DNA from: Escherichia coli
GTDB taxonomy: Bacteria; Pseudomonadota; Gammaproteobacteria; Enterobacterales; Enterobacteriaceae
Assembly (NCBI RefSeq): GCF_001677475.2
Contig: NZ_CP015229.1
Direction: 5' to 3' (one strand)
DNA length: 64,000 bases
In this document: positions 752 through 34,794 of the stretch, one piece after another
How the letters are laid out: each line of letters begins with the position of its first letter
Position numbering within the stretch: the first letter of the stretch is position 1
Notes under the pieces: model-generated
Told to the model about the DNA's origin: nothing
The model's database searches: none
Seen by the model: only the letters and a program-made list of their open reading frames with translations
Translations under genes and position numbers: made by a program

Positions 752-1096
752 TTATTTCTTTGGACGATATTTTTCTGGCAACTCCGGCACCGGACGCTTG
801 TCATCGATGAGATGACGCACAGTTAAGATCGGGTGACGCCACAGCATTCTCGGCCCGGCCCAACGCATAATCTGTTTCATCTCTTCACGCTTTGCAGGCT
901 GGTAACAGTGCACCGGACACTGCTTACAGGCTGGTTTCTCTTCGCCGAACACACATTTATCCAGCCGCTTTTGCGCGTAAGTAAACAACGCCTCATAATG
1001 CTCCGGCTCCGCTGACGCCTGCGGGCATTTCGCTTGATAAAGATCGATCATTTTTTTAATCGTCAGTTTTTCACGAGAGATACGCTTGCCGGACAT
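752..1096 (-). CDS. ygbA: Cys-rich small protein, NO-stimulated-promoter family (YgbA-like)
   Basis: 114-aa ORF with CxxC...C...CxxC pattern (CPQ...CVFGEEKPACKQCPVHC), divergent from mutS as in E. coli; the family assignment is from recall. Confidence 0.7.
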   Translation of the reverse strand: MSGKRISREKLTIKKMIDLYQAKCPQASAEPEHYEALFTYAQKRLDKCVFGEEKPACKQCPVHCYQPAKREEMKQIMRWAGPRMLWRHPILTVRHLIDDKRPVPELPEKYRPKK

Positions 1097-1113
1097 GCTG
1101 CCTCCATACTCTT

Positions 1114-1136
1114 AAGGTGTATTTATATTACAACTT
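1114..1136. promoter_or_regulatory. Putative NsrR-type operator upstream of ygbA
   Basis: AAGGTGTATTTATATTACAACTT matches about 16-18 of 23 positions of the recalled NsrR inverted-repeat consensus (AAGATGCATTT-N-AAATGCATCTT) and lies 18-40 nt upstream of the ygbA start. Manual match only. Confidence 0.35.
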
Positions 1137-1382
1137 AATTTGAAAGGGGACTATGGCTCTGAAGGAGGAGGTTTATTCAACCGACGCAATTTTGCGTACT
1201 TGCTTCATAATCATCACGCAAAAGCTGCAAAACAGCATCTTTCCCGGAATCACCATCAAGAACTCGCCGTTCGCTTCTTCCCCTGAAATGATTAACTCCG
1301 GTATCATGTGCGCCTTATGTGATTACAACGAAAATAAAAACCATCACACCCCATTTAATATCAGGGAACCGGACATAACCCC

Positions 1383-3944
1383 ATGAGTGCAATAGAAAAT
1401 TTCGACGCCCATACGCCCATGATGCAGCAGTATCTCAAGCTGAAAGCCCAGCATCCCGAGATCCTGCTGTTTTACCGGATGGGTGATTTTTATGAACTGT
1501 TTTATGACGACGCAAAACGTGCGTCGCAACTGCTGGATATTTCACTGACCAAACGCGGTGCTTCAGCGGGAGAGCCGATCCCGATGGCGGGGATTCCCTA
1601 CCATGCAGTGGAAAACTACCTCGCCAAACTGGTGAATCAGGGCGAGTCCGTTGCCATCTGCGAACAAATTGGCGATCCGGCGACCAGCAAAGGTCCGGTT
1701 GAGCGCAAAGTTGTGCGTATCGTTACGCCTGGCACCATCAGCGATGAAGCCCTGTTGCAGGAGCGTCAGGACAACCTGTTGGCGGCTATCTGGCAGGACA
1801 GTAAAGGTTTCGGCTACGCGACGCTGGATATTAGTTCCGGTCGTTTTCGCCTGAGCGAACCGGCTGACCGGGAAACGATGGCGGCAGAACTGCAACGCAC
1901 TAATCCTGCGGAACTGCTGTATGCAGAAGATTTTGCTGAAATGTCGTTAATTGAAGGTCGTCGCGGTCTGCGCCGTCGCCCGCTGTGGGAGTTTGAAATC
2001 GACACCGCGCGCCAGCAGTTAAACCTGCAATTTGGCACTCGTGATCTGGTCGGTTTTGGCGTCGAGAACGCGCCGCGCGGACTTTGTGCTGCCGGTTGTC
2101 TGTTGCAGTATGCGAAAGATACCCAACGCACGACCCTGCCGCATATTCGTTCTATCACCATGGAACGTGAGCAGGACAGCATCATTATGGATGCCGCGAC
2201 GCGTCGTAACCTGGAAATTACCCAGAACCTGGCGGGCGGTGCGGAAAACACGCTGGCTTCAGTGCTCGACTGCACTGTAACGCCGATGGGTAGTCGTATG
2301 CTGAAACGCTGGCTGCATATGCCAGTGCGCGATACCCGCGTGTTGCTTGAGCGCCAGCAAACTATTGGCGCATTGCAGGATTTCACCGCCGAGCTGCAGC
2401 CGGTACTGCGTCAGGTCGGCGACCTGGAACGTATTCTGGCACGTCTGGCTTTACGAACAGCTCGCCCACGCGATCTGGCCCGTATGCGTCACGCTTTCCA
2501 GCAACTGCCGGAGTTGCGTGCGCAGTTAGAAACTGTCGATAGCGCTCCGGTGCAGGCGCTACGTGAGAAGATGGGCGAGTTTGCCGAGCTGCGCGATCTG
2601 CTGGAGCGAGCAATCATCGACACACCGCCAGTGCTGGTACGCGACGGTGGTGTTATCGCATCAGGCTATAACGAAGAGCTGGATGAGTGGCGCGCGCTGG
2701 CTGACGGCGCGACCGATTATCTGGAGCGTCTGGAAGTCCGCGAGCGTGAACGTACCGGCCTGGACACGCTGAAAGTTGGCTTTAATGCGGTGCACGGCTA
2801 CTACATTCAGATCAGCCGTGGGCAAAGCCACCTGGCACCGATTAACTACATGCGCCGCCAGACGCTGAAAAACGCCGAACGCTACATTATTCCAGAGCTA
2901 AAAGAGTACGAAGATAAAGTTCTCACCTCAAAAGGCAAAGCACTGGCACTGGAAAAACAGCTTTATGAAGAGCTGTTCGACTTGCTGTTGCCGCATCTGG
3001 AAGCGTTGCAACAGAGCGCGAGCGCGCTGGCGGAACTCGACGTGCTGGTTAACCTGGCGGAACGGGCCTATACCCTGAACTACACCTGCCCGACCTTTAT
3101 TGATAAACCGGGTATTCGCATCACCGAAGGCCGCCATCCGGTGGTTGAACAGGTACTGAACGAGCCATTTATCGCCAACCCGCTGAACCTGTCGCCGCAG
3201 CGTCGCATGTTGATCATTACCGGTCCGAATATGGGCGGTAAAAGTACCTATATGCGCCAGACCGCACTGATTGCGCTGATGGCGTATATCGGCAGCTATG
3301 TACCGGCACAAAAAGTCGAGATTGGACCTATCGATCGCATCTTTACCCGCGTAGGGGCAGCGGATGATCTGGCATCCGGGCGTTCAACCTTTATGGTGGA
3401 GATGACCGAAACCGCTAATATTCTGCATAACGCCACCGAGTACAGCCTGGTGTTGATGGATGAGATTGGGCGCGGGACGTCCACTTACGATGGCCTGTCG
3501 CTGGCGTGGGCGTGCGCGGAAAATCTGGCGAATAAGATTAAAGCGTTGACGCTGTTTGCCACCCACTATTTCGAGCTGACCCAGTTACCGGAGAAAATGG
3601 AAGGCGTCGCCAACGTGCATCTCGATGCACTGGAGCACGGCGACACCATTGCCTTTATGCACAGCGTGCAGGATGGCGCGGCGAGCAAAAGCTACGGCCT
3701 GGCGGTTGCAGCTCTGGCAGGCGTGCCAAAAGAGGTTATTAAGCGCGCACGGCAAAAACTGCGTGAGCTGGAAAGCATTTCGCCGAACGCCGCCGCTACG
3801 CAAGTGGATGGTACGCAAATGTCTTTGCTGTCCGTACCAGAAGAAACTTCGCCTGCGGTCGAGGCACTGGAAAACCTCGACCCGGATTCACTGACTCCGC
3901 GTCAGGCGCTGGAATGGATTTATCGCTTGAAGAGTCTGGTGTAA
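1383..3944 (+). CDS. mutS: DNA mismatch repair protein MutS
   Basis: 853-aa ORF; Walker [10 protein letters not shown], MutS signature [14 protein letters not shown], start [18 protein letters not shown]. Confidence 0.97.
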
Positions 3945-9303: not shown

Positions 9304-9391
9304 TTCGCTAAATCCCTAATTACAACGTACCCATACATCCCCCCATCTACGGATGGGGTAGGTTAACTATAACTTTCAGACAGGGTTTCCC

Positions 9392-10794: not shown

Positions 10795-11031
10795 TTAGCG
10801 CTTATCTGCCGCCAGCAGCGGCGGGATGCTCGGCACCATTGGCGCGTCATCAATATCTTTTTGTGTCATACGGAACGCTTGTGGGTAATGTTCACGGCTG
10901 GTGCGGCGTAGCGGTTCGGTATCGCGCCAGGTATAAAGGCAATGCTGGCACTGATATACCGTCCAGACATCTTTCACCGGCGATTTCGCCATCACTTCAA
11001 TCTGTTCATCGGCACAACGTGGACAAATCAT
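10795..11031 (-). CDS. Small subunit of UbiD-family (de)carboxylase (EcdD/KpdD/BsdD-like)
   Basis: 78 aa with Cys motifs (MICPRC...CQHC), directly downstream of the UbiD-like gene; arrangement typical of phenolic-acid decarboxylase BCD operons. Confidence 0.7.
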   Translation of the reverse strand: MICPRCADEQIEVMAKSPVKDVWTVYQCQHCLYTWRDTEPLRRTSREHYPQAFRMTQKDIDDAPMVPSIPPLLAADKR

Positions 11032-11041
11032 CTTCTTCTCC

Positions 11042-12469
11042 TTATTGACGCGCGGCCAGCATAGCGGTCAGTTTTTCAGCCCAGGCTTTGGTTTCCGGCA
11101 AATCCACCACCGGCTGGCTGTAGTGACCACGGTTGTCCGGGGCGACAGGCGTGGTGGCGTCGATAATCAGCTTGTCGGTGATGCCTGCCGGGCTTGAGCC
11201 AGGGTCGAGTTCCAGCACGGACATATTTGGTAGTTGCACCAAGTCGCCCGCCGGGTTCACTTTCGAGGAGAGCGCCCACATCACCTGCGGCAGGTTGAAC
11301 GGGTCAACGTCTTCATCGACCATAATCACCATCTTCACGTAGCCCAGACCGTGCGGCGTGGTCATCGCACGCAGGCCCACCGCGCGGGCAAAGCCGCCGT
11401 AGCGTTTTTTGGTGGAGATAATCGCCAGCAGGCCGTGGGTGTACATGGCGTTTACCGCCTGCACTTCCGGGAACTCGGCTTTCAGTTGTTGATACAGCGG
11501 TACGCAGGTGGCTGGCCCCATCAGGTAGTCGATTTCGGTCCACGGCATGCCGAGGTACAGCGATTCGAAAATCGGCCTGGTGCGGTAAGAGACTTTATCG
11601 ATGCGCACCACGGTCATGTTACGCCCGCCGGAGTAGTGTCCGGTAAACTCACCGAACGGCCCTTCGATTTCGCGTTTACGGCTTTCGATGACCCCTTCGA
11701 GGATCACTTCTGAACCCCACGGCACATCAAAACCGGTCAGCGGGGCGGTAGCGATCGGGTATGGGCTTTCACGCAGCGCGCCTGCCATTTCATACTCAGA
11801 CTGATCGTATTTCAGTGGCGTAGCCCCCATCAGCGTGATGATCGGATCGTTACCGAGCGTGATCGCAATCGGTAGATCTTCACCGCGCTCTTCTGCTTTA
11901 TGTAGATGCAGGGCGATATCGTGCATCGGCACCGGTTGTAGGCCGAGCTTTCGCTTGCCCTTCACTTCCATGCGGTAGATGCCGACGTTCTGCTTGCCGA
12001 AGTTATCCGGGTCGAGCGGATCGCGGGAAACCACGCAGGCTTTGTCGAGATAGAAACCGCCATCGCCATCGTTTAAACGAAACAGCGGCAGGATATCGAA
12101 CAGGTTAATCTCGTCGCTATCAACGGTGTTCTGCGCCCAGGCAGGATTGGCGCGGCGCTCCGGGGCAATCGGGAAGTTATCCCAGCGGCGAATAAACTCA
12201 TCAATCTGTTTTTTAACCGGAGTGTTTGCCGGCAGGCCGAGGGAAATCGCATGGTTCTGCCAGGAACCGATGGTATTCATCGCCACGCGGGCATCGGTAA
12301 AGCCGCGAATATTGTCAAACCACAGCGCCGGTGCGCCGTCGCCGATACGCCCGGTGGCGTTAGCTGCTGCTGCCAGATCCGGCTCAGCGTTCACCTCTTC
12401 GCTGATTTTCAGTAACTGGCCGTGGTCATCAAGCGCCTGTAAAAAGCTGCGTAAATCATCAAATGCCAT
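11042..12469 (-). CDS. UbiD-family prenylated-FMN-dependent aromatic-acid decarboxylase (EcdC/YclC-like)
   Basis: 475 aa; UbiD-like N-terminus MAFDDLRSFLQALDDHGQLLKISEEVNAEPDLAAAA. Confidence 0.85.
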   Translation of the reverse strand: MAFDDLRSFLQALDDHGQLLKISEEVNAEPDLAAAANATGRIGDGAPALWFDNIRGFTDARVAMNTIGSWQNHAISLGLPANTPVKKQIDEFIRRWDNFPIAPERRANPAWAQNTVDSDEINLFDILPLFRLNDGDGGFYLDKACVVSRDPLDPDNFGKQNVGIYRMEVKGKRKLGLQPVPMHDIALHLHKAEERGEDLPIAITLGNDPIITLMGATPLKYDQSEYEMAGALRESPYPIATAPLTGFDVPWGSEVILEGVIESRKREIEGPFGEFTGHYSGGRNMTVVRIDKVSYRTRPIFESLYLGMPWTEIDYLMGPATCVPLYQQLKAEFPEVQAVNAMYTHGLLAIISTKKRYGGFARAVGLRAMTTPHGLGYVKMVIMVDEDVDPFNLPQVMWALSSKVNPAGDLVQLPNMSVLELDPGSSPAGITDKLIIDATTPVAPDNRGHYSQPVVDLPETKAWAEKLTAMLAARQ

Positions 12470-13062
12470 TATTTATTCTCCTGAGAAAAATTCCGGGCCT
12501 GCGGCAATCCTTGCCAGCGCCTGGCGTGGGGATGTTCGAGGCCAAATTGATCCAGCACGCGGGCTACCACATGGTGGACAATGTCATCTACCGTTTCGGG
12601 ATGGTTATAAAAGGCAGGCATCGGCGGCACCATCGCCACGCCCATGCGTGAAAGTGCGAGCATATTTTCGAGATGGATGGTGCTAAGCGGCATTTCACGC
12701 GGCACCAGCACCAGTTTGCGGCCTTCTTTGAGCACGACGTCCGCCGCGCGCCCTACCAGGCCATCGGCGTAACCAGCGCGGATACCGGAGAGCGTTTTCA
12801 TACTGCACGGAATAACGATCATGCCGTCGGTACGAAAAGAACCGGATGAGATGATCGCCGCCTGATCCGCCGGGTTATGGCTGAAGTCTGCGAGGGCAGC
12901 AACATCGCGAGCGCTGTAAGGCGTTTCCAGTTCAATGGTGGTTTTCGCCCACTTCGACATCACCAGATGAGTCTCGACATTCGGCATCTCCCGCAGCGCT
13001 TGCAGTAATGCCACACCAAGAGGCGCACCGGTAGCCCCTGTCATCCCGACGATCAGTTTCAT
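12469..13062 (-). CDS. UbiX/Pad1-family flavin prenyltransferase (EcdB-like)
   Basis: 197 aa; N-terminal MKLIVGMTGATGAPLGVALLQAL is the UbiX/PAD1 flavoprotein signature; stop overlaps the UbiD-like start by 1 nt. Confidence 0.85.
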   Translation of the reverse strand: MKLIVGMTGATGAPLGVALLQALREMPNVETHLVMSKWAKTTIELETPYSARDVAALADFSHNPADQAAIISSGSFRTDGMIVIPCSMKTLSGIRAGYADGLVGRAADVVLKEGRKLVLVPREMPLSTIHLENMLALSRMGVAMVPPMPAFYNHPETVDDIVHHVVARVLDQFGLEHPHARRWQGLPQARNFSQENK

Positions 13063-13208
13063 TGCTTATTCTCTTAATTGTTCGTATACGAACGTTATTA
13101 TTAACATACTCCTTCATTTCCACAGCGGCAAGGATTGAAAAGTAACAACATCTTCTTCGTCACTAAAAAACCGCTATGATAGCGACAGAGAATTAGCCCG
13201 GAGTTTAC

Positions 13209-13616
13209 ATGGCGTTACGAAATAAAGCGTTCCATCAGTTACGACAGCTTTTTCAGCAGCACACGGCTCGCTGGCAGCACGAGTTACCTGACCTGACCAA
13301 ACCACAGTATGCGGTGATGCGCGCCATTGCTGATAAGCCTGGTATCGAACAGGTGGCACTGATAGAAGCAGCAGTCAGCACCAAAGCAACGTTGGCAGAA
13401 ATGTTGGCAAGAATGGAGAATCGTGGCTTAGTCAGACGTGAACATGATGCCGCTGACAAGCGGCGTCGCTTTGTCTGGCTGACTGCCGAAGGAGAAAAGG
13501 TACTTGCTGCGGCGATACCGATTGGTGACAGTGTGGATGAGGAATTTTTGGGGCGTTTGAGTGCAGAAGAGAAGGAGCTGTTTATGCAGCTGGTGCGCAA
13601 GATGATGAGCACATAG
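13209..13616 (+). CDS. MarR-family transcriptional regulator, divergent from the decarboxylase operon
   Basis: 135 aa; winged-helix MarR architecture (…QYAVMRAIADKPGIEQVALIEAAVSTKATLAEMLARMENRGLVRR…). Confidence 0.8.
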   Translation: MALRNKAFHQLRQLFQQHTARWQHELPDLTKPQYAVMRAIADKPGIEQVALIEAAVSTKATLAEMLARMENRGLVRREHDAADKRRRFVWLTAEGEKVLAAAIPIGDSVDEEFLGRLSAEEKELFMQLVRKMMST

Positions 13617-24816: not shown

Positions 24817-25516
24817 GGGAGTTCTACCGCAGGGGCGGGGAACTCCAAGTGATATCCATCATCGCATCCAGTGCGCCCGGTTTATCCCCGCTGGCGCGGG
24901 GAACACCAAATCCAGCCAGCCGCCGACGGTAATCACCCCGGTTTATCCCCGCTGGCGCGGGGAACACTATGGGGTAGGGCGCTATCAGACATTTACGCAC
25001 GGTTTATCCCCGCTGGCGCGGGGAACACTGCAAGTAACGTTAAGGGAACCGTGGAGACAGCGGTTTATCCCCGCTGGCGCGGGGAACACTTAGAAAACGC
25101 AATGAGCCGCGCGCCCATACCCGGTTTATCCCCGCTGGCGCGGGGAACACGGCACGCTGGACTGAACAAATCCCTGGGCCATCGGTTTATCCCCGCTGGC
25201 GCGGGGAACACACTTACAACCACAATAATAAAAAAAGCCTCGTCGGTTTATCCCCGCTGGCGCGGGGAACACGCCGCTATCTCACCACCAGAACTGTTAC
25301 CCGTCGGTTTATCCCCGCTGGCGCGGGGAACACTTGCAGTGGATAGTCATGTAGCCCGCGCGGGCCGGTTTATCCCCGCTGGCGCGGGGAACACTTTAAA
25401 TACTGCCGTTCCAGCTTGTTGATCGCCGGTTTATCCCCGCTGGCGCGGGGAACACCGTAACTGCCTGTACACGCTGTAATGGCTCACCGGTTTATCCCCG
25501 CTGGCGCGGGGAACAC
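24817..25516 (-). CRISPR. CRISPR array 1 (type I-E): 11 identical 29-nt repeats plus 1 degenerate terminal repeat, 11 spacers of 32 nt
   Basis: Repeat CGGTTTATCCCCGCTGGCGCGGGGAACAC (plus strand) recurs at 24878 + 61k for k=0..10. Degenerate distal repeat at 24817-24845 (GGGAGTTCTACCGCAGGGGCGGGGAACTC). Leader is on the cas2 side, so transcription is on the minus strand. Confidence 0.97.
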
Positions 25517-25612
25517 ACTAAGCATACATAACTGTTTTTAAACAAATTTATTCCGCATCAACAATCTACCAACTAAATTAAAACATTTCCTTATTTTTAA
25601 AGAACGGATAAC
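25517..25612 (-). promoter_or_regulatory. CRISPR array 1 leader (AT-rich) between cas2 stop and first repeat
   Basis: AT-rich 96 nt; contains ACAATCTACCAAC about 42 nt from the first repeat, a motif also present in the array 2 leader. Confidence 0.7.
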
Positions 25613-26822
<1,210 letters not shown>

Positions 26823-26826
<4 letters not shown>

Positions 26827-27473
26827 GCCTCTGCTCCGGGTTTGATCAGCATCAGACCACAACCGAACGCCCGGCTTTTGCCATACCCCTGACTGAGACG
26901 TTGCAGAAATAACCCAGGATCGGTGACCGTAAGCATCCCCGTATAATCCACGCTACTGAACTGGATCAGTTGCCGGGAGTTTTCCCGCCGCAGTTGCTGT
27001 TGTCGGTAGGCATCAACCGAAGTATCCAGCAGTGTAAAACCGCTTCTCTCCCCCTGCGCTGCCAGCCAGTTCAGCGCAGCCTGTTGTTGATGCAACCAGA
27101 CATCACTTCCTTCCACCGGCCCCCTCACCTGCCGTTTCGCCTCCATCAGCAAGTCGTGGCGTTTGCCCGCTTTACAAATTGTTGGATTCGCCCGCAGGTT
27201 GAAACAAAGGGATTGTCCGGTACGCAACTCTGGCGCAAATGGTCGGCATTCGATGGTGAAAATATCACTTTCCGCCGGGCGTTCCTGCGACAGGACAAAA
27301 AAGCGAAACGCCCCCTGGAGTTCTTCCCGACGATAAAGAAATTGCCTTTCTTTGCCGCCAGGAAAAAGATCCCACAGCCACTGATGCATTACATATTCAC
27401 CGCGATCCACCAAATGCAGCAACTGCGCAGGCGAAAGCTGGCCGGTATGTAATGTTATTCTTGAGAGGTACAT
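26823..27473 (-). CDS. cas6e: crRNA endoribonuclease Cas6e (CasE)
   Basis: Start at ATG 27473 (MYLSRITLH…) preceded by AAGGAGGA; 216 aa; Gly-rich C-terminal segment (GYGKSRAFGCGLM). Strongly diverged from K-12 CasE as recalled. Confidence 0.9.
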
Positions 27474-28201
27474 GGTTCCTCCTTGCTGAGCCACGGCCCC
27501 TGATTGATGGTGCGTTCCCCAAACAGCCACTGCTGACGATTTAAAGGAACATCCCGGCGACGTAATATTTTGCTCGCGACCAGGCCGTCGTGTTCCCCTT
27601 CCCACCAGCATTCATCCTGAAGTTTCGGGAGTGAGACTTTCAGTTCGCGGAAACTATCCTGATACTGTTGGTATGCGTTACGTAAGACATCAGACGCGTT
27701 GCCTTCGAGCAGTAACGGCGCAAGTGGTAACGCCAGCGGATGACTTTTTCGCCCCAGATAAAGCGGAAAAACCGGATGACGTAAACCGTCCTGCAACTGT
27801 TCAAGGCTGTAAGGCGCATCGGGGGTTGTTGCCACCGCCACCATCCACCAGGCATCGGTGTAGTAGTCGCGCCGGGAGATAATCGCGCTCAGAAGATCAG
27901 GGGCGCTCAACTCTTCGCGACGGCTGAAATAACGCGCTTTACGCACCTCTTTTGGCATCTGGACCGTGTGATAATCCCGTGCCCAGCGCGGGTTACGGCT
28001 GGCGCAAACCACCAGTGAATAGTGGCGGTTAAACGCGTTTAATCGTTCGGTATCATCACGCCGAATCCCTACCCCGGCAGCCAGCAGCCCCAGCAATGCT
28101 GAGCGCGAAGGCAGTTCATGGGTATGACGCACTTCGCCGGGGGCATCGACGCCCCAGGATGCCATTGGCCCATGAAGCTGAAAAATCAAATATTGGCTCA
28201 T
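27455..28201 (-). CDS. cas5: Cascade subunit Cas5e (CasD)
   Basis: 248 aa; N-terminus MSQYLIFQLHGPMASWG parallels K-12 CasD (MRSYLILRLAGPMQAWG); 19-nt overlap with cas6e start. Confidence 0.9.
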   Translation of the reverse strand: MSQYLIFQLHGPMASWGVDAPGEVRHTHELPSRSALLGLLAAGVGIRRDDTERLNAFNRHYSLVVCASRNPRWARDYHTVQMPKEVRKARYFSRREELSAPDLLSAIISRRDYYTDAWWMVAVATTPDAPYSLEQLQDGLRHPVFPLYLGRKSHPLALPLAPLLLEGNASDVLRNAYQQYQDSFRELKVSLPKLQDECWWEGEHDGLVASKILRRRDVPLNRQQWLFGERTINQGPWLSKEEPCTSQE

Positions 28202-28211
28202 TAGCCGCCCC

Positions 28212-29267
28212 TTACGCGCAGATAAAGTCCAGCACGTCCTTCATGCTTCCCTGTTTGTTCATCACGTCAAAGCTTGCGCATTCGGTCTTCTGTTCATAGA
28301 CCGTATTCATATTTTCGCGAAGCGTTGTAATACGCTGCACCGCCACATCTAACTGCCGGGTGCCATTAATGGGTTCATAGAAAGCCGCCGCCAGAGAGCG
28401 TGGTTGTTCAGTGCCTTTTTCTGCCAGCGCCCAGGAGGCGTAGGCACGGCTGGCAAAGCTGTTCTGTTTGCCGGTTGGGGAGACTTTAAGTGCGGCTTCC
28501 GTAAAGGCGCGCAAGGTCTGATTAGCTAACGCTTCGTCACCGCCGAGGTTTTCGACCAGCAGATCTTTATCGATGCAGATATAGGTGTAGAACAGCGCAG
28601 AACCGAATCCGGTTTCACCAAGATGCCCGGCACCGGCATCTTCAGAAGCCTGGCGCAAATCATCAACGGCGGTGAAAAAATCATCTTCGACAATCGTTTC
28701 ACTGACACCAAATGCATGCGCGACCTGGCAGGCGGCTTCAACATTAAATTCGGGTTTATTCGCCAGCATACGACCAAACATAGCGATATCTACTGCCATG
28801 CGATCTTTACGTAACAAAGCGAGATCTTCCTCTTTTGGCGCGCGCTTTTCTTCGGCCAGTTGATGGGCCAGCGCTTTTACGGCGTCAAATTCTGCCGGGC
28901 TGATATGGACTAGCTGTTCAGTTTCGGCGTTAGTGAGCGGATCTTTTGGTTTTTTGTCGTTTTTAGCTTTCCCAAGATAATCCGCAATTTTCGCCGCCCA
29001 TTCGATGGCTTTTTTCTCTTCGATGCCTTTCTCAATCAGGATAGTTGCCGCCTCACGCGCAATACGCCCACTGCGAATACCAATATGGCCCGCCAGCGCC
29101 TGTTCAAAAAGTGCAGAAGTGCGCCACGCACGTTTCAGACTTTGTGAGGAAACGCGCAGACGCGTTGCTCCACCCAGTACCACAGTTTTTGGCGCACCGG
29201 TGTCATCACGGTTAAGGTTGGCAGCAGGGTAAGCGGTTAACAAATGAAGCTGAATAAATGTCGTCAT
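28212..29267 (-). CDS. cas7: Cascade backbone subunit Cas7e (CasC)
   Basis: 351 aa; N-terminal …LNRDDTGAPKTVVLGGATRLRVSSQSLKRAWR… typical of Cas7e. Confidence 0.9.
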   Translation of the reverse strand: MTTFIQLHLLTAYPAANLNRDDTGAPKTVVLGGATRLRVSSQSLKRAWRTSALFEQALAGHIGIRSGRIAREAATILIEKGIEEKKAIEWAAKIADYLGKAKNDKKPKDPLTNAETEQLVHISPAEFDAVKALAHQLAEEKRAPKEEDLALLRKDRMAVDIAMFGRMLANKPEFNVEAACQVAHAFGVSETIVEDDFFTAVDDLRQASEDAGAGHLGETGFGSALFYTYICIDKDLLVENLGGDEALANQTLRAFTEAALKVSPTGKQNSFASRAYASWALAEKGTEQPRSLAAAFYEPINGTRQLDVAVQRITTLRENMNTVYEQKTECASFDVMNKQGSMKDVLDFICA

Positions 29268-29281
29268 GAGATAGTCCTTTA

Positions 29282-29818
29282 TTAATTTTGTTCGTTATCG
29301 GCGTCGCCAGCCTGGTAATATTCCAGCGCCCAGCGGATACGGATAAATTCTGTTGGCCGCTGCTGGCGGCGGTGATGATTGAGCAGATCGTCGCTCTCCT
29401 GGCACCAGCGGAAAATATCGTCTGCCAAAGAGATAAGATTGACGGAACCATTTAATAATTTGACCGCGCGACGTAACTGGCGCAGTAATTCATCCGGCGT
29501 TTTGACTGCCGACAGGCGAGTAAAACGCCCCTCAGACATTACCGCCGCCAACTGCGCGGCAAAAGGCTGCCGTTCATCAATGGCTTTTACATTGGCGGCA
29601 ACGGCGGCAACCAGCGCCAGTGCGGTAAAACGCCACTCCTGTGATTCAATTTTCCACAACGTGTGGGTCTGCATCAGCAGTGAACGAAACCCTTCTGACA
29701 GACAAACATCATTAACCGTTGTGCTACGCCGCAGACTGGCACGATTGCCGCGTTTTTCCTGCAACTCTTCGTGCCATTTACGCAGCGTGGCTTTGTGCTC
29801 CTCTTTTACAATACTCAT
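29282..29818 (-). CDS. cse2: Cascade small subunit Cse2 (CasB)
   Basis: 178 aa, basic helical protein between cse1 and cas7; ATGA overlap with cse1 stop. Confidence 0.85.
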   Translation of the reverse strand: MSIVKEEHKATLRKWHEELQEKRGNRASLRRSTTVNDVCLSEGFRSLLMQTHTLWKIESQEWRFTALALVAAVAANVKAIDERQPFAAQLAAVMSEGRFTRLSAVKTPDELLRQLRRAVKLLNGSVNLISLADDIFRWCQESDDLLNHHRRQQRPTEFIRIRWALEYYQAGDADNEQN

Positions 29819-31377
29819 TCAGCAGCCTCCTGCTTTTTCTCCCTGGCGGCTTTAGCACTTTGCTTCTCCGCCGATGTTGTAAAATATTTCTTGCGCGCGG
29901 TCATGACGCGTTTCAAATCAACGGGCTCATAAGGATTAGTGAATACACGCTCGTCAAAATCCTGACGCGCGAATAACCAAATTTCCTTTTGCCATTTGCC
30001 GAGTAATTCATCCGCATCCTGACCTTCTTCAATTTGGCGCACTAACCTCAGGAAGCGATGCTGAGTTTTGTTCCAGAAGTCGATATCCACAAAACTGAAA
30101 TCACCCCTTGCACCTTTTGGATCGGAGAACCATGCTTCTTTCAATGCACTCCGTAACAGACTCAGAATCCGTGAAGCCGTTTGCGCAGCCAGCCGCAGCT
30201 TCGGTATCTGGCCTTCTTTTTTATTGAGCAGTAGCGGGAAATGGTGTTCGTACCAACAGCGCGCTTTCATGTTGTCAAAATCATAACCAAATCCCCACAG
30301 GCCCACTTTTGCCTGTTTCAGACTGCTGGCATTAAAGAGTTTCACCACCAGCGCGGGAAGTTCCGTATTGTTTTCTGATTTACCCGTTTCGATAAGGCCT
30401 AACCAGTCGCGCCAGATTAAACCGCCCGGTTGTGGTTTAACGGAGTAAAACTCGCCACCCTCTTTAAGTGGTACACGGTAAGGCGTTAAGGGATGCTGCC
30501 ACATGGCATAATTGGCACCATAATTTTTGGTCGTCATCAGGCTCAGGAGCGCGTCGTTCTGCTCGTCGCAAATATCGCAGTTGCCGACTGTCGTGGTATT
30601 AAAATCAATACGTATACGCCGCGGCATTCCCCAGTACGCCTGGAGTTTATTGACCTGATCATGGGTTACCACCGCACCGGCCAGTTCGCTGGTACGCGTC
30701 GGGCCTAGCCAGGGGAAAATCAGATCGTCAAATTTTTTGGGTAGCGGTAAGTCGGCTTCATCCTGCGGCATCACGTTGAGCCACAGTTTGCGCCACAAGG
30801 GTGTTTGTTGATTGCCCTGATATTCCTGTAATTCAATGAGAGTCGTCATCGGCCCACCGCCGCGTAAACCGGTGCGATAGCCTTTGCCGCCCGCGGGTGC
30901 ATTCAACTGTAAAGAGAACAAGGCCAATGCTAAGCAATGGGGGCACAGATATTCCGTTACACCCCGCTTGATAAAATGGTCTTTATTAAACTTCGTCGTT
31001 TGAGAACCGGGAATCTCAGGCAGTAGCGAAGCGACCGGAACTTTATCTCCCGTGAGCGCCTCAAAATCCTGCATAAATGAAGGGGAATCTGGCCCAAACT
31101 GGAAAGCATGTTCTAAGGACAGCAATGCTTCCCGTAGCTTTTCAGCTTCCAGTCCGTCTTCCCAGATATCATCCCAACGACGATGATCTTTTGGCGCGAA
31201 GCTGGTTTGTAGTAGCCCCAGCAAAAACTGCCAGGCCGCCCCCTGGAGATCTGCCCGCGGCGCAGCGATATCGACAACATTTTCATCCGCCAGATCGACT
31301 GGCGCCAGTTTGCCTGTCGTTCCGTCTTTATAACGAACGGGCAACCACGGGGTTGTTATAATTGAAAAAAATTCCAT
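29815..31377 (-). CDS. cse1: Cascade large subunit Cse1 (CasA)
   Basis: Start at ATG 31377 (MEFFSIITTPWLPVRYKDG…) with GAGG SD; ORF-track start 31392 is TTG. N-terminus parallels K-12 Cse1 (…NWIPVRPRNG…). Confidence 0.88.
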   Translation of the reverse strand: MEFFSIITTPWLPVRYKDGTTGKLAPVDLADENVVDIAAPRADLQGAAWQFLLGLLQTSFAPKDHRRWDDIWEDGLEAEKLREALLSLEHAFQFGPDSPSFMQDFEALTGDKVPVASLLPEIPGSQTTKFNKDHFIKRGVTEYLCPHCLALALFSLQLNAPAGGKGYRTGLRGGGPMTTLIELQEYQGNQQTPLWRKLWLNVMPQDEADLPLPKKFDDLIFPWLGPTRTSELAGAVVTHDQVNKLQAYWGMPRRIRIDFNTTTVGNCDICDEQNDALLSLMTTKNYGANYAMWQHPLTPYRVPLKEGGEFYSVKPQPGGLIWRDWLGLIETGKSENNTELPALVVKLFNASSLKQAKVGLWGFGYDFDNMKARCWYEHHFPLLLNKKEGQIPKLRLAAQTASRILSLLRSALKEAWFSDPKGARGDFSFVDIDFWNKTQHRFLRLVRQIEEGQDADELLGKWQKEIWLFARQDFDERVFTNPYEPVDLKRVMTARKKYFTTSAEKQSAKAAREKKQEAAE

Positions 31378-31752
31378 ACGCTTTCCTCGCAAATAAGACC
31401 ATCCATGGTAGGTTGTCCATCACCATATTCAAGAATCAATCGAAAAGAGAGATTACATCATATTAAATGAATATATTGAAAATTAGATTATTATTAAATA
31501 ATCAATAAATCACACGAATATATAAAGATAATTTTCTATAATGCTTTTCGCTCAGGCTCTATCACTTAATAAAAACCAAAGTATTCTTTATCAAAAGGTT
31601 TTTCAACTCTGCTTCCGGACATTGTTACATATATCAATAACTCTTAGAGATTTTCTTTATTTCGAATAACCCTTATTTTTGATATAAACGTCTTCAGTTC
31701 CCTGTCTAAGGGATTAACCAAGTTAGTGATACACGTATATCATTTTATGCTC
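31378..31752 (-). promoter_or_regulatory. AT-rich cas3-cse1 intergenic region, presumed Cascade operon promoter
   Basis: 375-nt strongly AT-rich spacer upstream of cse1. By analogy with K-12, where this region holds the H-NS-silenced, LeuO-activated Pcas promoter; not demonstrated here. Confidence 0.45.
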
Positions 31753-31781
31753 CTGTTCCCCGCGTCAGCGGGGATAAGCCC
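31753..31781 (+). repeat. Solo CRISPR-repeat-like sequence, inverted relative to both arrays, just downstream of cas3
   Basis: Plus strand CTGTTCCCCGCGTCAGCGGGGATAAGCCC; its reverse complement matches the array repeat at 25 of 29 positions; begins 26 nt from the cas3 stop. Confidence 0.6.
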
Positions 31782-31806
31782 TGGCGTCATCCGACTCCAG
31801 GGCATC

Positions 31807-34506
31807 TCAATCAACCTTACCAATCAATCCCTCCGTAGCCGAATACCCGCAACTTTCGTCATCGGTAACTAAAATCACATTTGCCATCTCCGGATCTTGC
31901 CGCTGTTCAACGCACCACTGCCTGAACGCATCCCCTTCCAGTAAAGAAAACTCATCGCGATGTTTTTTCCACCAGCTTCGACGCACTCTGACAACGCTCA
32001 TTTCCCATGCGTGAGCACCGGTGGCATAAGGCTTCACCACACCGTCAATACAGGTAGCCAGCCACAGGGAAACAGATTCCTCAGCCAGACGTGTCGACAG
32101 CTTTTCCGGAAGGTAATCGTTGATATTGGCGGCATAGCCAGGCTTGAAGTTCAGGACAAACTTTTTAGCCATTGCACGATCGCAGTAATATTTGCCCACT
32201 TGCTCCTGCTCGCTGCGGGCAAATCCTTCCGGCATTACCACGTCCTCACCGTAGACTGATTCAATAAGAAGGCGGGCTGCGTGTGGCATTTGAATAGCGC
32301 CTTGCTCACGCAGTACACGCTGCGTCAGCCAGATTCGTCCATGATCGGGATAGACATATGCACTGTTACGCATGGCACTGCCGAACCATTCGTCACCAGG
32401 AGCGTCGTCCCAGACGGGGGCCAGAATCAGCAATTCAGGAGGGGAACGCTCGTCTTTTCCGTCACGCTTTAACTGACCATTAATATCGCGGATATGCCGC
32501 TGTAATCGCCCCGCCCGTTGGATCAGCAAATCAACAGAGGCCAGGTCGGAGATCATTTCGTCCAGGTCAATATCCACACTTTGTTCAATTACTTGCGTAC
32601 AAACAATGACTTGCGATAATCTCTGTAAACTACAACTTTTACCAAAGCGTGCCAACGTTTCCGTTTCAATTCGCTGGCGATCGCTAAAAGCAAAGCGGCT
32701 ATGAAAAAGAGAAAGGCTGGAAGCAGGAATGACGCCGCGGGCAAGTAACTGACGATAAACTTTAATAGCATCATCGACAGAATTCCGGATCCAGGCGATG
32801 CATTTCCCCTGACTTACCGCCGATTCGATACGCGCAATACACTCTTGTTCGCTATGAAGCCAACCCACGCTCACGCTACGCTCAACGTCTTTGCGCGTCG
32901 CTACCCGGTGTGAATGCACATCGGATTTCGTAACGTGCGTCAGCCAGGGGTAATCATCCTTTTCCAGGAACGGAGCTTCTTGCTGGCCCTCTGTACCACG
33001 CGCAAAGGCAGCAACGAGTTTGTCGCGCTGCTGTTGAGATAACGTGGCAGAAAGCAAAATGACGCTGTTTCCGCCACGCGCCTGCAGCTCGATCAGCCCT
33101 TCAAGAATGCATGACATGTAAGCGTCACAGGCATGGATCTCATCAGCCAGCAGGATTTTGTTACTCAGTCCCAGAAGCCGCAGATTATTATGTTTGAACG
33201 GCATCACAGCCATCATCGCCTGATCCAGCGTGCCGACGCCAATTTCAGCCAGCAACGCCTTCTTGTTACTGTCAGCAAACCAGGCCGCACATCCCTGGCT
33301 GAAAGCTTGTTCATCCGGTTCTTCTGACCCGACTAAATCACCGGACCAGAGTGATTCATTAAAGCGGTCCATTAATGTGCGGGCACTGTGTGCCAGCACC
33401 AGGCTGGGGCGGGATTGTGGCGAATAGAAAGCAAGCCAGGTTTTGACCAGCCGATCGTACATGGCATTGGCCGTTGCCATTGTTGGCAGGCCAAAAAACA
33501 AACCCTGCGCTTTCCCCGCAGCCATCAACCTGTGCGCCAGGATAAGCGCCGCTTCTGTTTTACCTGCGCCGGTTACATCCTCCAGAATAAATAACTGTGG
33601 TCCCGGCTGGCTGATATCCAGATCCAGCACCTTTTGCTGTAGCGGTGTCGGATTCTCAATAAAAGGAAACAGCGTATTAATTCCGGTGAAAGGCGCGGTT
33701 TCTGCTTTTGGAGGAAAGACGGTTAAGGCGTTTTGAGCCTGAACTAAAGTTTTCTGCCAGTAATCTTCAATATCCATTGTCTGTGCGACGCGTGGAAAAA
33801 ATCGCGTTGACGATCCCGTCCAGTCTGCAAGTACGACGGTTGCAGAGATATACCAGGAAAGTTGTTTTATAAGTTCAACGCCCTCGTCATCATCCCAGAA
33901 TGTGGGGATCTCTATGAGCGGAAACAGTGCCTTGATTGCAAGGAGAAAATCTCGTGCGGCAGCTTTGTCTTCAGGCAGAAAGTTGTCCAGTTCATCCATA
34001 CGGTCAGGAGGCCGACCATGATGCCCGGTAGTTATGGGCATCCACATATCTATTACCCGTTTGAGCTTGCGCGGAGAGAGTGAAGATGCAGGAAGCAATT
34101 CTTCGCATTCACTTAAATAATGGTGCCACAACCAGTAACCCAGCGTTGAATGAGAGATTTTTTCGTAATTTTTTCTAGAGCTTTCCGGAACCTTGAGTTG
34201 CGGGTGCAGGTAAAGTTGCTGAAAAGAGCGGGCAAATTTTCCAGTATCGTGCCAGCACAATAGCCAGGCGAAAAATTGTGCTGCCTGCTCCGTATCAGCG
34301 AAACCTAGTTGACGAAAATAGTCAGCCAGCCCGAAGCAATTGCTTTTAACCATTAAATAGCCCATCGCGGCTACATCCAGCGAATGCCAGCAAAGAAGGT
34401 GATAGTCGTCGCCCCCGTCTTTCTCGCCGCGTCGGGTTTTTCCCCAGAAATCAAAAAAAGTCACAATATTTTTATCCTTCAGTAAACTTAAAGGATATTT
34501 ACGCAT
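31807..34506 (-). CDS. cas3: Cas3 HD-nuclease/helicase (type I-E)
   Basis: 899 aa; N-terminal HD domain (…LLCWHSLDVAA…), helicase motif I (TGAGKTEAA) and motif II (LLADEIHACD). Confidence 0.93.
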   Translation of the reverse strand: MRKYPLSLLKDKNIVTFFDFWGKTRRGEKDGGDDYHLLCWHSLDVAAMGYLMVKSNCFGLADYFRQLGFADTEQAAQFFAWLLCWHDTGKFARSFQQLYLHPQLKVPESSRKNYEKISHSTLGYWLWHHYLSECEELLPASSLSPRKLKRVIDMWMPITTGHHGRPPDRMDELDNFLPEDKAAARDFLLAIKALFPLIEIPTFWDDDEGVELIKQLSWYISATVVLADWTGSSTRFFPRVAQTMDIEDYWQKTLVQAQNALTVFPPKAETAPFTGINTLFPFIENPTPLQQKVLDLDISQPGPQLFILEDVTGAGKTEAALILAHRLMAAGKAQGLFFGLPTMATANAMYDRLVKTWLAFYSPQSRPSLVLAHSARTLMDRFNESLWSGDLVGSEEPDEQAFSQGCAAWFADSNKKALLAEIGVGTLDQAMMAVMPFKHNNLRLLGLSNKILLADEIHACDAYMSCILEGLIELQARGGNSVILLSATLSQQQRDKLVAAFARGTEGQQEAPFLEKDDYPWLTHVTKSDVHSHRVATRKDVERSVSVGWLHSEQECIARIESAVSQGKCIAWIRNSVDDAIKVYRQLLARGVIPASSLSLFHSRFAFSDRQRIETETLARFGKSCSLQRLSQVIVCTQVIEQSVDIDLDEMISDLASVDLLIQRAGRLQRHIRDINGQLKRDGKDERSPPELLILAPVWDDAPGDEWFGSAMRNSAYVYPDHGRIWLTQRVLREQGAIQMPHAARLLIESVYGEDVVMPEGFARSEQEQVGKYYCDRAMAKKFVLNFKPGYAANINDYLPEKLSTRLAEESVSLWLATCIDGVVKPYATGAHAWEMSVVRVRRSWWKKHRDEFSLLEGDAFRQWCVEQRQDPEMANVILVTDDESCGYSATEGLIGKVD

Positions 34507-34674
34507 ATATTAAAAATTATCTGTGATATATATCGTTCAATAAAATATTTACATTATGAATAATCAAATAATTTTCATCCGTAATATATATGAATAATAA
34601 ACATAGGCATAATATTCACATAAACAATATAAATTAAAAAAGGGTGCAGGAGACCAAACCATCACAATTCAGTA

Positions 34675-34697
34675 CGCGGGGTTTTATCCCCGCGTGG
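34675..34697 (+). repeat. Partial CRISPR-repeat-like hairpin upstream of cas3
   Basis: CGCGGGG-TTTTAT-CCCCGCG is a perfect 7-bp stem; GGTTTTATCCCCGCGTGG matches the first about 19 nt of the array repeat (GGTTTATCCCCGCTGG) with 2 indels. Confidence 0.4.
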
Positions 34698-34794
34698 TGG
34701 CTACTTCTTCGATTCGTAAGCGAAAACTGCCTTAAACTCCATACCACGTTCTCTGATACTCAACTCACACAACGAGTCGCCTACCATCAGCGTG

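Follow-up and report, generated by a model that had tools for sequence, protein, structure and literature searches.

The 23-bp element at positions 1114–1136 of the Escherichia coli DNA analyzed here (hereafter the window, meaning the whole stretch of 64,000 nucleotides) is an NsrR-type inverted repeat. We consider it very probable that it serves as the NsrR operator of the ygbA promoter, at which NsrR would act by occlusion, be released by NO, and control ygbA only. The sequence identity of the site, its statistical significance, its orthology to published sites, its deep conservation, and the −10-like signature within it were all observed directly in this analysis. The preliminary description of this region had noted a resemblance to the NsrR inverted-repeat consensus directly upstream of ygbA, which it took to be an NO-responsive member of the NsrR regulon; both points hold, and the identification as the ygbA NsrR operator is correct and already in the literature, where the orthologous site of strain CFT073 and its regulation have been published.

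Organization of the ygbA–mutS intergenic region

This part of the window runs from the 3′ end of fhlA through a gene coding for a TOBE-domain protein, ygbA, and a 286-bp spacer to mutS; the segment from 700 to 1500 is matched in 5,419 of the 5,426 complete E. coli genomes. The operator, AAGGTGTATTTATATTACAACTT, was read at exactly 1114–1136 within this spacer, upstream of the minus-strand ygbA and separated by 17 nt from its ATG (Table 1). The inverted repeat is imperfect, with 8 of the 11 positions being symmetric, and because of these imperfect arms it was not reported by a generic inverted-repeat finder using a 6-nt seed, the only output of which was a set of repeats at 1183–1239 that are unrelated to the operator. 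An Rfam scan of 700–1500 detected no RNA element.

Table 1. Coordinates of the operator, the flanking genes, and the associated expression signals in the window
Feature	Position	Strand	Description
NsrR operator	1114..1136	.	11-1-11 inverted repeat; AAGGTGTATTT-A-TATTACAACTT
Operator arms	1114–1124 and 1126–1136		Spacer at 1125
ygbA CDS	752..1096	minus	114 aa; Pfam PF11756 (YgbA_NO), E = 5e-41; gene controlled by the operator
ygbA Shine-Dalgarno, GGAGG	1101..1105	minus	From sequence; GGAG-like block conserved in the ortholog alignment
Predicted ygbA −10, TAATAT	1125..1130	minus	Embedded in the operator, site positions 7–12 in the ygbA sense
Candidate weak ygbA −35, TAGTCC	1148..1153	minus	3/6 match; 17 nt upstream of the embedded −10; relaxed scan
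Predicted ygbA transcription start	1117..1120	minus	About 7 nt past the −10, in the promoter-proximal arm
mutS 5′ leader from the published start	1309..1382	plus	Start at −74 (Chen and Gottesman, 2017), mapped onto the window; not under the operator
mutS CDS	1383–3944	plus

Statistical support for the NsrR motif

The source list for the motif comprised the 27 published NsrR sites of the 11-1-11 type from E. coli CFT073 (Mehta et al., 2015, their Table 4), and a symmetrized weight matrix was constructed from the 16 distinct ChIP-seq-positive CFT073 sites, with ygbA left out. The operator reaches 21.0 bits on this matrix when the background is taken from the window itself and 20.5 bits when it is uniform. 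It ranks first among the 63,978 positions of the window, with the runner-up at 13.3 bits, and falls mid-range among the training sites themselves (13.5–31.0 bits). First-order Markov simulations give an expectation of 0.005 such hits per 64 kb. The exact P value is 5 × 10–8 (ln P −16.8), and ln P becomes −15.6 with the AT-rich composition of the intergenic spacer itself; both values lie beyond the published cutoff of −14.28. When compared with the degenerate consensus AAGATGYATTT-N-AAATRCATCTT, the operator agrees at 18 of the 22 specified positions, a level equaled by 0 of 2000 local shuffles. The preliminary description had named a matrix score below background as the outcome that would count against its claim. 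This check was run on 406,099 positions of unrelated enterobacterial flanking DNA, in which the background maximum was 14.5 bits, with no position reaching 15, and the operator stands far above it. The NsrR-type site at 1114–1136 is real.

The next-best full-site matches in the window (e.g., 9353–9375, at 13.3 bits) were rejected as chance occurrences because they fall below every training site and also below the maximum reached on average in the simulations.

We also considered whether the palindrome might be the operator of another regulator, viz., Fur, IscR, FNR, CRP, or NarL/NarP. The response of ygbA to nitrate and nitrite, two signals that also act via NarL/NarP and FNR, and the AT-richness of the operator, a property shared with Fur boxes, could be read in this sense; however, with an agreement to the NsrR consensus that no local shuffle attains, such an assignment is exceedingly improbable. 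The consensuses for Fur, IscR types 1 and 2, FNR, CRP, and NarL were themselves tried and set aside, with 0.30–0.98 of the shuffles reaching the observed match.

Conservation of the operator across enterobacteria

We compared 80 ygbA loci that represent about 25 genera of enterobacteria, including Escherichia, Citrobacter, Salmonella, Enterobacter, Klebsiella, Raoultella, Kluyvera, Leclercia, Lelliottia, Pluralibacter, Phytobacter, Trabulsiella, and Rahnella, among others. The best matrix match within the 320 bp upstream of ygbA is found 12–22 nt from the ATG in all 80 loci, and in 79 of them it is also the top match of the entire locus of approximately 5.3 kb. A multi-genus alignment shows it to be the only conserved upstream block, i.e., the operator constitutes a phylogenetic footprint. 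Across the 66 distinct orthologous sites, the positions of high information for NsrR (A1, A2, G6, C18, A19, T22, and T23) are 94–100% conserved. The two arms do not match the motif equally well: the mean half-site score of the promoter-distal arm is 6.75 bits versus 11.27 bits for the other arm.

A probable −10 hexamer embedded in the operator

When read in the ygbA sense, positions 7–12 of the site take the form T-A-n-n-A-T in 65 of the 66 distinct orthologous sites. Two of these positions are unexplained by NsrR preference: A occupies position 11 in 98% of the sites, where NsrR prefers T, and position 12, the central spacer at which NsrR is neutral, is T in 100% of them. From this recurrent signature, we infer that the operator contains an embedded −10 hexamer, which would in turn account for the lower score and the consensus deviations of the degenerate arm. 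A relaxed promoter scan pairs this hexamer with a weak candidate −35 element at a spacing of 17 nt, and the start predicted from it implies a ygbA leader of about 22 nt. An ATAGT block at the −35 position is conserved in Escherichia, Citrobacter, and Salmonella, and an approximate reading of the alignment by eye points to a cTGAAA-like block with roughly the same spacing in the Enterobacter group. A stringent sigma-70 scan of both strands of 700–1500 recovered no canonical promoter, and a literature search found no ygbA start site.

NsrR is known to repress the ytfE and hmp promoters by binding over core promoter elements, with de-repression by NO. The E. coli hmp operator has the same 23-bp inverted-repeat motif as the ygbA site and reaches 21.4 bits on the matrix used here. 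The ytfE operator of E. coli also shares this motif, but is a perfect palindrome (11/11 positions symmetric, 30.5 bits), unlike the ygbA site with its one near-consensus and one degenerate arm. The overlap of the ygbA operator with core promoter elements, as judged from the TAnnAT signature, and the placement of the predicted start inside the repeat together suggest that NsrR most likely represses ygbA by occluding its promoter. Given the weak −35 element and the negative outcome of the stringent scan, this occlusion step, like the exact −10 and start site, is one that we infer.

We accordingly envisage a simple circuit. NsrR, an Rrf2-family iron-sulfur repressor that senses NO, would bind the 11-1-11 repeat as a dimer, cover the −10 and the predicted start of ygbA, and block RNA polymerase, thereby keeping ygbA off. 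Nitrosylation of the NsrR cluster by NO would then cause the protein to leave the DNA and allow ygbA to be transcribed, with the operator acting on this gene alone. The nsrR gene is located outside the 64-kb window; to our knowledge, NsrR is universal in Escherichia.

Relationship to the published NsrR–ygbA system and allelic variation

ygbA was recorded as NsrR-regulated by Rodionov et al., 2005 and by Gilberthorpe et al., 2007, the latter reporting a 31.8-fold increase of its mRNA in a Salmonella nsrR mutant, and Mehta et al., 2015 refer to it as a gene known to be regulated by NsrR. As cited by the last authors, the NsrR site and regulation of ygbA in E. coli are also credited to Bodenmiller and Spiro, 2006, and NsrR was found to be bound at the ygbA promoter of K-12 by ChIP-chip (Partridge et al., 2009). 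In CFT073, the gene is responsive to nitrate and nitrite and is among those most strongly induced by nitrate (Mehta et al., 2015). Binding and de-repression in vivo are thus facts established in the literature for orthologous sites, which by analogy would extend to the site in the window.

The CFT073 ygbA site, AAGGTGCATTTATATTACAACTT (ln P −16.65; Mehta et al., 2015), is identical to the window operator at 22 of 23 positions, the single difference being a T in place of C at site position 7 in the window. The K-12 allele, AAGATGTATTTATATTACATCTT, is identical at 21 of 23 positions, with the window carrying G4 and A20 where K-12 has A4 and T20. Both sites occupy the same orthologous position, 17 nt from the ATG, with the same 11-1-11 architecture, and the differences are allelic only. 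With uniform background the window, CFT073, and K-12 alleles score 20.5, 21.4, and 21.3 bits, respectively, level with the hmp operator. Salmonella enterica likewise has the orthologous gene and operator, the latter at a distance of 19 nt from the start codon (in subsp. diarizonae, AAGGTGTAAAATAAATGCATCTT, with a score of 19.9 bits), but, unlike the window, without mutS within 2.5 kb upstream of ygbA. Comparison of the ygbA-adjacent 64 bp returned exact matches of the window's haplotype in 1,294 complete E. coli records and of the K-12 haplotype in 2,106 records. This frequency indicates that the window operator is a common natural allele and no mutant operator. More broadly, the ygbA-proximal ~100 bp of the spacer (1097–1200) are dimorphic in E. 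coli, with two haplotypes that are 80–90% identical.

These data bear on whether NsrR binds functionally in this strain, or whether the element is an AT-rich, palindrome-like −10 region of ygbA, or an operator weakened by its three polymorphisms. NsrR ChIP-seq in CFT073 showed no peak at ygbA, which its authors call a false negative (Mehta et al., 2015), the promoter-distal arm departs from the consensus, and the operator is polymorphic at three positions within E. coli. Against this, the conserved positions include ones that lie outside any −10 (the terminal AA and TT, G6, and C18-A19), every allele retains about 21 bits, equal to the hmp operator, the window's haplotype is widespread, and both regulation and K-12 ChIP-chip binding have been reported for the orthologous site. 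We therefore regard a lack of functional binding as highly improbable and retain the interpretation of the element as a working NsrR operator of ygbA.

The operator and the divergent mutS gene

The preliminary description had further raised the possibility that NO stress could affect mutS transcription via the same site. In Escherichia, the two genes are indeed back to back across the 286-bp spacer, only ~190 bp separate the published mutS start from the ygbA start predicted here, and a weak half-site-like sequence, AAGATGCTGTT, occurs at 1231–1241. An action of NsrR at 1114–1136 on mutS, whether direct or via supercoiling or interference from de-repressed ygbA transcription, is nevertheless very unlikely on several grounds. 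The mutS start has been placed at −74 and an (AAN)3 Hfq motif at −50 to −42 (Chen and Gottesman, 2017); this motif falls on AATAAAAAC at 1333–1341, which confirms the mapped mutS numbering. The center of the operator, at 1125, is then ~184 bp upstream of the mutS start (~1309) and well outside the core promoter. A scan of the spacer for 11-bp half-sites yielded only chance-level matches near mutS, with none significant at its −35, −10, or start: the sequence at 1231–1241 scores 8.3 bits, a level met about once per kb, and is clear of these elements, and that at 1306–1316 scores 5.3 bits.

The comparative data point in the same direction. Only in Escherichia are ygbA and mutS as close as about 285 bp, whereas the operator is conserved in all the genera. 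In Enterobacter, Leclercia, and Lelliottia, the ygbA–mutS spacer is about 510–534 bp and holds another small ORF, and the loci from Citrobacter, Salmonella, Klebsiella, Raoultella, and Kluyvera lack mutS within 2.5 kb but keep the operator. The variation in adjacency across genera is due to island insertion at the fhlA/mutS locus, a hotspot for such events with an ancestral state in which sitABCD is beside ygbA, as described in the paper on the evolution of SPI-1; the same work places sitABCD and SPI-1 between ygbA and mutS in Salmonella, where ygbA is still NsrR-regulated. The known control of mutS is post-transcriptional, involving Hfq, ArcZ, and SdsR (Chen and Gottesman, 2017), mutS is nowhere mentioned in the text of the CFT073 NsrR ChIP-seq/RNA-seq study (Mehta et al., 2015), and no link between transcription of E. 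coli mutS and either NsrR or NO was found in the literature searched. Hence, the operator is neither close to the mutS core promoter nor conserved jointly with the gene pair; as far as these loci indicate, it follows ygbA and not mutS across genera, and co-regulation of mutS by the operator is not supported.

A version of the mutS connection limited to Escherichia can be formulated, in which loss of the sitABCD segment placed ygbA and mutS back to back, and an NO-fired ygbA promoter ~190 bp away would perturb mutS transcription through supercoiling or polymerase traffic. If true, nitrosative stress would be coupled to mismatch-repair capacity and mutation rate; we give this scenario, which would amount to a minor indirect effect, little credence as well, and favor an operator devoted to ygbA.

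Several other features of the spacer were recorded. The best −10-like hexamer for mutS is TATCAT at 1302–1307 on the plus strand, which ends 2 nt before the published start at 1309; a promoter scan found no canonical mutS promoter, and either the true start is a few nucleotides further downstream or the mutS promoter is non-canonical. Between the two promoters, the region 1183–1239 contains the inverted repeats TTTTGCGT/ACGCAAAA at 1190–1197 and 1216–1223 and a terminator-like hairpin on the minus strand at 1236–1224 (GCTGTTTTGCAGC followed by a T-run). These elements might shield ygbA against divergent or antisense transcription that starts near the mutS promoter. Many genomes carry a PGAP call of a hypothetical protein for a 44-aa ORF at 1173–1307 on the minus strand, which lacks both a Pfam match and an annotation in K-12; its start codon overlaps the −10-like TATCAT of mutS, and it is probably a spurious call. 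The mutS-proximal ~200 bp of the spacer (1200–1382) are nearly invariant, differing only at 1211, 1250, and 1253 among the E. coli compared, and are well conserved across Escherichia species.

Further observations concern other genera. The small ORF in the ~520-bp spacer is conserved in eight loci from Enterobacter, Leclercia, Lelliottia, Silvania, and Huaxiibacter; in this group it is oriented toward mutS and ends ~115 nt before the mutS ATG. In five loci from Salmonella, Citrobacter, and Pseudocitrobacter, a block of the form AAATGAAAATAATTCTTATTT is conserved ~75–100 nt upstream of ygbA; this block looks like a Fur/MntR-type box, presumably one of the divergent sitABCD operon located there.

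Wider genomic context of the window

Positions 1–49754 of the window are colinear with ordinary E. coli, with the order fhlA-ygbA-mutS-pphB-ygbI..N-rpoS-nlpD-...-cysDNC-iap-CRISPR/cas-cysHIJ-ygc genes. Over 25–50 kb, the window is ~97.2–97.7% identical to the best of the 5,426 complete E. coli genomes, a value pointing to an Escherichia lineage that is divergent and may be a cryptic clade. The gene between fhlA and ygbA, at 285–713 on the plus strand, codes for a protein with two TOBE domains (Mop-like, of the molybdate-binding type); K-12 lacks this gene, which occurs in 1,892 of the 5,426 complete genomes and probably corresponds to the gene termed 'modE' in the SPI-1 locus paper in E. albertii, E. 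fergusonii, and IAI39. In the variable region between mutS and rpoS, the segment ~10795–13616 codes for the B, C, and D subunits of a non-oxidative hydroxyarylic acid decarboxylase along with a MarR-family regulator (annotation transferred from a colinear genome), an island known to be polymorphic and absent from K-12-like strains. Further downstream, ~24877–34700 contains a type I-E CRISPR array with the repeat CGGTTTATCCCCGCTGGCGCGGGGAACAC (seen at 25000–25516), followed by a cas block with the order cas2-cas1-cas6e-cas5-cas7-casB-casA-cas3 that is ~94% identical to the reference genome used. At ~35000, a gene for a Hok/Gef-family toxin adjoins cysH.

Biological implications

The comparative data argue against a co-regulation of mutS with ygbA; a link between NO and mismatch repair would bear on stress-induced mutagenesis. 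The value of the present result is mainly that of a correct annotation, namely of a textbook member of the NsrR regulon carrying a common natural allele of its operator. A further small point is that a −10 hexamer lying within the ygbA operator, and shared by the enterobacterial genera compared, would account for its degenerate arm.
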